Positions 6,021-7,070 of a DNA stretch of 32,366 bases are shown here, one piece after another. The stretch is from the sequence record PV340563, one strand, 5' to 3'. Within the stretch, counting starts at the first letter, position 1. Each line of letters begins with the position of its first letter. A model generated the notes under the pieces. It searched no databases. It saw only the letters and a list, made by a program, of their open reading frames with translations, and was not told where the DNA came from. The stretch is from Escherichia phage PhiR44_1. A program made the position numbers and the translations under genes.

Positions 6021-7070
6021 TTGATTAAGGTTGTTGATTTATTCTGTGGCGCGGGTGGCTTGACTCACGGTCTTCAGAAGTCGGGGCTTAATGTAGTTGC
6101 AGGTTATGATATAGATGCAGCCTGTCGATTTGCCTATGAGACAAATAATAAATCACTCTTTGTCCAGAAAAGTGTTACAGACATTGAGGACGGCGAATTA
6201 GTTAAATATTTCGAAGGAGCGAAGGTTCGAGTTTTGGCTGGTTGTGCCCCATGCCAACCTTTTTCAAGCTATACCAATAGTGCTAAATTAGGGGTAGTAC
6301 GTTCAAAAGATAAAAGATGGTCTTTGCTTTATAGCTTTGCTAAGCAAATTAAATTGGCAAAGCCAGATATTATTACAATGGAAAACGTTCCCCGAGTGGT
6401 GAATCATAAGGTTTTTAAGGACTTCATTAAGTCTCTTAAAAATGATGGCTATTTTGTTTGGTATGGGGTGGTGTTTTGTCCAGACTATGGAATGGCACAA
6501 AGTCGTTCAAGATTAGTGTTATTGGCATCAAAATATGGAGAAATAGAAATAATTCCACCAACTCATGAGAAGAATGATTATAAAACGGTGCGAGATATAA
6601 TCGGTAATCTTCCTGAAATTAGTGCCGGTGCTGTTCACGCTGGAGATAAACTACATCGCTCTGCATCATTATCTGATATTAATATAAAAAGAATAATGGC
6701 ATCAAAACCTGGTGGAACATGGCGTGATTGGCCAGAAGAGCTAAGAGCAAAATGTCATACAAAAGAAAGTGGTTCTACATATACTGCTGTATATGGGAGA
6801 ATGTGTTGGGATAAACTTGGACCGACAATTACAACTCAATGTATTGGATATGGGAATGGACGCTTTGGGCACCCTGTCCAAAATAGAGCATTAAGTTTAA
6901 GAGAGGCTGCGCTATTACAGTCATTCCCAGAAAAGTATGAGTTTTGGCCTGATGATGTAAAAATTGAAATGAGAACAGTTGCGCGTTTAATAGGTAATGC
7001 TGTTCCTGTTAGGCTTGGTGAGGTCGTAGGTGAAACTATTTTAAAACATTTGTCAGAAATGAATATTTAA
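6021..7070 (+). CDS. DNA (cytosine-5)-methyltransferase (cargo)
   Basis: m5C MTase motifs in order: I DLFCGAGG, IV GCAPCQPFS (catalytic Cys), VI ENV, VIII QSRSR, X GNAVPVRLGEVVG. Likely TTG start at 6021 with AGGAGG 7 nt upstream; the ORF-track ATG at 5919 gives an implausible N-terminal extension. Visibly AT-rich compared with the phage backbone. Confidence 0.85.
   Translation: MIKVVDLFCGAGGLTHGLQKSGLNVVAGYDIDAACRFAYETNNKSLFVQKSVTDIEDGELVKYFEGAKVRVLAGCAPCQPFSSYTNSAKLGVVRSKDKRWSLLYSFAKQIKLAKPDIITMENVPRVVNHKVFKDFIKSLKNDGYFVWYGVVFCPDYGMAQSRSRLVLLASKYGEIEIIPPTHEKNDYKTVRDIIGNLPEISAGAVHAGDKLHRSASLSDINIKRIMASKPGGTWRDWPEELRAKCHTKESGSTYTAVYGRMCWDKLGPTITTQCIGYGNGRFGHPVQNRALSLREAALLQSFPEKYEFWPDDVKIEMRTVARLIGNAVPVRLGEVVGETILKHLSEMNI

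Follow-up and report, generated by a model that had tools for sequence, protein, structure and literature searches.

A predicted HgiDII/BbrUII-family restriction-modification cassette with a TTG-initiated cytosine methyltransferase gene in the gpA-gpQ hotspot of a P2-like Escherichia coli prophage

Related systems and genomic setting

The restriction-modification systems closest to the locus described here are HgiDII, from Herpetosiphon giganteus Hpa2, and BbrUII (BbrII), from Bifidobacterium breve UCC2003, the transformation of which BbrUII limits. M.HgiDII is an experimentally characterised m5C enzyme for GTCGAC (PMC5867850) and appears with the same target, its modified base entered as undetermined, in a table derived from REBASE (PMC6329791). 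M.BbrUII recognises GTCGAC (PMC5005818) and has also been reported as an m5C enzyme (PMC5867850); its description elsewhere as an N6-adenine enzyme (PMC5829577) contradicts both of these sources. The R.HgiDII endonuclease was described as combining a GHKL N-terminus with a then-unassigned C-terminal domain (Orlowski & Bujnicki 2008, PMC2441816). The 'paraMORC3' proteins (GHKL+S5+RE-fold), described from restriction-modification operons that also encode cytosine methylases (Iyer, Abhiman & Aravind 2008, PMC2292703), are here counted among the closest known systems. Regarding location, the interval between gpA and gpQ is a published cos-proximal defence hotspot of P2-like phages, with old/tin among its cargo (Rousset et al. 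2022, PMC9122126).

The window analysed here (32,366 nucleotides of Escherichia phage PhiR44_1, record PV340563) contains a cassette with a G+C content of 37.1%, versus 53.1% in the remaining window, in which an m5C methyltransferase gene (M) and a restriction endonuclease gene (R) face each other (Table 1). In the annotation of the identical RefSeq region the cassette is flanked by the replication endonuclease (gpA) on one side and by the portal protein on the other, the order given by PGAP being gpA, a 'DNA cytosine methyltransferase' with the coordinates of M, a convergent 'BbrUII/HgiDII family restriction enzyme' and the portal protein. Location between gene A and the portal gene Q and a foreign base composition are both those of gpA-gpQ hotspot cargo, and by these sequence features M is cargo. 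The cassette has in common with P2 cargo such as old/tin both the locus and a prophage-borne defence logic, and its size (3.4 kb) compares with a reported mean of 3.2 kb for cargo of this hotspot; the examples given in the part of that report drawn on here are retrons and type III endonucleases, with no mention of this M/R cassette, whereas the content of the hotspot in the window is a predicted Type II restriction-modification pair (PMC9122126).

Table 1. Coordinates of the features discussed, in window numbering. A1, A2, A4 and A5 are alignments.
Feature	Position	Strand	Residues	Remarks
Low-GC cargo cassette	5910..9300	.		from gpA end (5909) to cos/portal side
Probable M promoter	5963..5993	+		both blocks invariant across four otherwise diverged upstream regions (A2)
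M Shine-Dalgarno AGGAGG	6009..6014	+		6-nt spacer (tttatc) before TTG 6021
m5C DNA methyltransferase gene (M)	6021..7070	+	349 aa	TTG start; TAA stop 7068-7070; RefSeq WP_087891951.1
Motif I, DLFCGAGG	6036..6059	+	6-13	AdoMet binding; invariant in A1 and A4
Motif IV, GCAPCQPFS	6240..6266	+	74-82	invariant in A1 and A4
Catalytic Cys78	6252-6254	+	78	within PCQ, residues 77-79
Motif VI, ENV		+	121-123	invariant in A1 and A4
Motif VIII, QSRSR	6498-6512	+	160-164	invariant in A1 and A4
Target-recognition domain	6531..6884	+	~171-288	between motifs VIII and IX
Motif IX, R289..P303	6885-6929	+	289-303	invariant in A1 and A4
Motif X, GNAVP		+	325-329	invariant in A1 and A4
G+C-rich hairpin, 10-bp	7081..7106	.		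arms CCCCCTGT 7083-7090 and ACAGGGGG 7097-7104; within M-R gap
Restriction endonuclease gene (R)	7111..9069	-	652 aa	RefSeq WP_001279022.1
Probable R promoter and Shine-Dalgarno	9077..9155	-		conserved blocks (A5); putative function

Even though 1385 E. coli records match the segment 5700-9300, just 30 do so with at least 80% coverage, and the cassette was found in 30 of 5426 complete E. coli genomes. Strain WP2-W18-ESBL-08 is 100% identical over 3.6 kb around M, and the other 19 complete genomes among the matches listed, which include APEC O2-211, PCN033 and ST1193 isolates, are 99.8-99.9% identical over the same length. In the matching E. coli genomes the window corresponds to a P2-like prophage inserted next to cpxP. 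None of the deposited phage genomes searched has a record with the cassette, the only matches being short ones, with 68% identity, to other methylases. The P2-like prophage of Pantoea sp. B623 (L005), one of three close relatives compared below, harbors two further methylase genes upstream of gpA (98-1983), one Dam-like (MethyltransfD12) and the other for a second m5C enzyme, besides the M/R pair in its hotspot, and in it additional DUF8209/DUF1493 genes separate R from the portal gene.

The explanation that we favor, and consider distinctly probable as a whole, is that a Type II cassette of the HgiDII/BbrUII family, consisting of two genes and acquired horizontally, resides between gene A and the portal gene of a P2-like E. 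coli prophage. Translation of M would begin at the TTG (6021), which has a strong Shine-Dalgarno sequence ahead of it, and its transcription would probably depend on the conserved promoter of the extended -10 type; its product would methylate a cytosine in GTCGAC and thereby shield the DNA of the lysogen from the convergently encoded endonuclease, which would in turn cut unmethylated GTCGAC in incoming DNA. Within this explanation the structure of the genes, the families to which both proteins belong and the conservation of the M-R pairing, of the start and of the target-recognition domain are observed here, and it is the GTCGAC specificity, the use of the promoter and the anti-phage function that we infer.

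The methyltransferase and its translation start

The M product presents the hallmarks of a C5-cytosine DNA methyltransferase. PF00145 spans residues 2-341 of 349 (Pfam, E = 2e-55), TIGR00675 gives 130.8 bits (cut-off 100.65), and motifs I, IV, VI, VIII, IX and X follow each other in canonical order, their invariance having been judged in alignments of 24 (A1) and 52 (A4) homologues. The AlphaFold2 model (pLDDT 88.9, pTM 0.88) is confident apart from residues 78-97, where a low pLDDT is to be expected because they form the mobile catalytic loop. In the PDB, Foldseek places the MET1 and DNMT1 catalytic domains first (TMq 0.73-0.80), with 3g7u, a methylase from an E. coli prophage (0.74), and M.HaeIII (0.67-0.69) next. 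The match to DNMT1/MET1 concerns the fold of the whole protein; in sequence, residues 246-340 of M align with the end of the target-recognition domain (TRD) and motifs IX and X of DNMT1. Identity to DNMT1/MET1 and M.HaeIII is just ~22%, M has no regulatory domains, and the target cannot be deduced from this likeness alone. As far as sequence and predicted structure can tell, the gene encodes a complete m5C methyltransferase.

Initiation at the TTG codon at 6021, put forward in a preliminary description of this DNA, is well supported by sequence comparison and is not new, since RefSeq already annotates exactly these coordinates. Read from this codon, the product begins (M)IKVVDLFCGAGG, that is, with motif I and in the manner of an m5C methyltransferase, as had been claimed, and most homologues likewise have 0-2 residues ahead of motif I (24 aligned), the Enterobacter and Cronobacter versions reading 'MLIKVV'; in distant homologues the start usually lies 0-5 codons upstream. 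The AGGAGG hexamer noted previously is indeed present, with a spacer of 6 nt and not 7. The close relatives L003, L004 and L005 (Pantoea), with identities of 83%, 82% and 75%, respectively, retain the position of the TTG codon, the GGAGG/GAGGAGGG block and the sequence TGcTACAAT. The latter would constitute an extended -10 element (5985-5993), separated by a 17-nt spacer from a -35-like TCGATG (5965-5970), and from the conservation of both blocks we infer promoter function. This extended -10 promoter was not reported by a simple consensus promoter scan because the -35 element matches just 3 of 6 positions. The predicted transcript start would lie near 6000, downstream of 5919, and such a transcript could therefore presumably not encode a longer form of the protein. 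An 8-bp palindrome, CATCGATG, occupies the -35 position (5963-5970) and is invariant in all four relatives compared; it could be a protein-binding site instead of, or besides, a -35 element.

The competing possibility, initiation further upstream to yield a protein of 378-383 aa with an N-terminal extension, has in its favor that the frame is open from 5919 and that two relatives (P0002 and P0003) were given extended proteins of 380-381 aa by automatic gene callers. N-terminal extensions serve autoregulation in some m5C methylases. The codon at 5919-5921, taken previously for the first in-frame ATG, is a TTG; when the frame is read back to the TGA at 5916-5918, after which it opens, no ATG or GTG is encountered before 6021, and the TTG codons at 5919, 5928 and 5934 are the sole candidates. 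There is no Shine-Dalgarno sequence ahead of 5919, and the extension neither matches a Pfam family nor is conserved as coding sequence: in L004 a frame-shifting 1-nt indel between the -10 element and the Shine-Dalgarno sequence breaks the longer frame, and in the Pantoea relative an in-frame TGA lies 15 nt (5 codons) upstream, with no alternative start. Moreover, the DNA that is conserved in this stretch is promoter-like (the palindrome and TGcTACAAT) and would fall inside the extension. PGAP and all the exact-sequence records have the 349-aa form, which is found under many accessions in public collections, and a search for a 383-aa form in the same collections found none. Taken together, these observations render an upstream start extremely improbable. 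Just 3' of the gpA stop codon, inside the rejected extension, the window contains a perfect 10-bp inverted repeat (TGCTTGATTT ... AAATCAAGCA, 5925-5953) with a fold energy of -13 kcal/mol (z = -2.8), at the equivalent position of which L003 has a different palindrome; it may be an early operon terminator or an operator.

The endonuclease and its pairing with the methyltransferase

The R product matches the NCBIfam equivalog NF050001, 'BbrUII/HgiDII family restriction enzyme', with 751.4 bits (cut-off 550) over residues 4-651 of 652. Its N-terminus (residues ~1-310) is a MORC/MutL-like GHKL ATPase and transducer domain (PF13589, 2.3e-25), in which the ATP-binding residues E30, N34, D37, D58xGxG62 and G96xxG99xG101 are invariant, and a helical linker connects it to a C-terminal, Shedu-like PD-(D/E)XK nuclease (residues ~480-630) with the motif D532, E546-x-K548; relatives of R score about the gathering threshold for Pfam SduA_C. 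With ATP-binding motifs, a transducer and an RE-fold nuclease motif, R has the attributes of a MORC/paraMORC GHKL ATPase-nuclease. The system is comparable to HgiDII in having an m5C methyltransferase of ~350 aa and an R protein of two domains with an N-terminal GHKL ATPase (PMC2441816), R matching an equivalog named after HgiDII, and differs from it in its E. coli host and its P2-like prophage hotspot carrier. With BbrUII, to which it is likened by family name, it has the name of the R family in common, BbrUII being chromosomal in an actinobacterium whereas the cassette of the window is prophage-borne.

Upstream of R, a putative promoter (TTGCTT 9155-9150, 17 nt, TATCTT 9132-9127) is followed by a putative Shine-Dalgarno sequence (AAGGAA, 9082-9077), spaced 7 nt from the ATG at 9069. 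Further upstream on the same strand, the motifs ATGCAGTTTCATGCA and ATGCGGTTGCA (9202-9216 and 9278-9288), built from ATGCA/TGCAT half-sites, are shared by four R-upstream regions that have diverged elsewhere, and may be the binding site of a regulator. No small HTH controller gene of the C-protein type was found in 5910-9300, where there are two annotated CDS and all other ORFs lie inside or opposite them. It is conceivable, and we advance it only tentatively as the less probable view, that R is no orthodox Type IIP enzyme but an ATP-driven, MORC-like machine with a Shedu-type nuclease, and that the weak TTG of M, conserved together with its extended -10 and its strong Shine-Dalgarno sequence, is part of a controller-free setting of the M:R ratio. 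The fusion of a MORC-like ATPase to a Shedu-like nuclease is a biochemically under-studied enzyme type, and, if the proposal were true, the prophage copy would serve conveniently as a model for ATP-dependent restriction of an uncharacterised class.

The two genes are convergent, with 40 nt between their stop codons, and the hairpin in this gap, with fold energies of -18.2 (z = -2.7) and -17.7 kcal/mol for the + and - strands, respectively, is probably a bidirectional terminator with weak T-tails. The PADLOC models MTase_II and REase_II both match, those of REase_II matching R. All three close relatives present the convergent pair in P2-like prophages, and of the 80 distant R relatives among the matches listed, which come from many bacterial phyla and Archaea and are 36-43% identical, ~55 adjoin an M homologue with 45-57% identity, in most cases in tandem M->R order as opposed to the convergent arrangement of the window. 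Both the match of R to its family and this conserved adjacency are features of the HgiDII/BbrUII type, and on such comparative grounds M is not a solitary methylase: it supplies the modification half of a Type II restriction-modification cassette of that type, which consists of two genes. The earlier reading of the gene as cargo holds, given its base composition and its place in the hotspot; the R partner had been left unlinked to it.

Within 4 kb of ~23 of the 80 distant R relatives listed there is no m5C methylase. These loci (L030 123-4004, L031 1849-3990 and 5969-9934, L083 176-3982 and ~20 others) adjoin ORFs of very large size (1270-1360 aa) or a pair of 713 and 1321 aa, which suggests that the GHKL-nuclease module is reused in other systems and hence is not exclusive to m5C-type pairs. 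Such loci, together with the convergent orientation and separate putative promoters of M and R, could be taken to indicate that the two genes of the window are functionally independent, M being a solitary phage methylase that evades host restriction and R a defence protein in its own right, of the Shedu-like or the modification-dependent kind. We deem this very unlikely: M-R adjacency is kept from E. coli to Archaea, with M conserved more than R, both genes are always present in the close relatives, HgiDII and BbrUII have been described as restriction-modification systems, and a modification-dependent nuclease would be self-toxic if it had a methylase as its neighbor.

Predicted target and implications

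The variable region between motifs VIII and IX, which the preliminary description had located at roughly residues 200-300, lies close to that position (Table 1), and its specificity had been considered unassignable, a statement that stands for a reading by eye; the neighboring gene and the family context do yield a prediction. Over 50 distant homologues, defined as those adjoining R-family genes, the TRD (residues 176-288 in this calculation) has a mean identity of 55.5% to the protein of the window, compared with 46.6% and 50.6% for the N-terminal and C-terminal catalytic parts. The TRD is conserved no less than the catalytic core, a pattern expected if the target were constant across the family. 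Given the conserved M-R pairing, the conservation of the TRD and the targets reported for M.HgiDII and M.BbrUII, GTCGAC is therefore predicted, and M most likely methylates a cytosine in this sequence, an assignment that derives from the name of the R-family model, the literature on both enzymes and the names given by submitters. The latter consist of 'M.HgiDII' on a cluster member at least 90% identical, as on near-identical E. coli M proteins, and on a Vibrio homologue with 58% identity, so that the likeness to the type enzyme is one of name and family. No Herpetosiphon or Bifidobacterium sequence was present among the 120 matches listed for the M and R proteins of the window and an Actinomadura M homologue as queries, nor among the R relatives listed from the genome scan (36-43% identity).

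Specificity can change within restriction-modification families, and M and R could be genuine members of this family that have drifted to a target other than GTCGAC. The link to the characterised enzymes is by family name, and the R relatives listed across phyla are just 36-43% identical. In addition, M.BbrUII-like methylases of Chania pair with a different, small endonuclease (PMC5005818), and avoidance of GTCGAC is weak. The window has three sites (11138, 20795 and 27289) where 8-11 are expected, many palindromes being rarer, and the pooled observed/expected ratio in loci with M and R is 0.74, which places GTCGAC at rank 14 among 64 palindromic hexamers; where M is missing from the locus, the ratio is 0.92. 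Conversely, no third of M is better conserved than the TRD over the 50 distant homologues, R lies 200 bits above its equivalog cut-off, and GTCGAC has been assigned to both M.HgiDII and M.BbrUII, which come from unrelated phyla (Chloroflexota and Actinomycetota). On balance we regard a different target as unlikely and retain GTCGAC as the predicted one. Autoregulation through a GTCGAC site in the promoter was considered and rejected, the cassette having no GTCGAC site. Over the whole prophage window, several G+C-rich palindromes are avoided far more strongly than GTCGAC (3 versus 10.6), with 3 GCCGGC observed and 31 expected, 0 and 14 for both CAGCTG and GGCGCC, and 1 and 12 for TGGCCA.

The M gene is an ordinary and already known feature, belonging to a named family, located in a published hotspot and annotated in RefSeq, where the start codon is already right, and its meaning beyond correct annotation is small. 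Carrier strains, such as APEC O2-211, PCN033 and the ST1193 isolates, would nonetheless be expected to restrict unmethylated DNA containing GTCGAC and to bear m5C that PacBio methylomes miss, with expected effects on transformation, phage susceptibility and SalI digestion.
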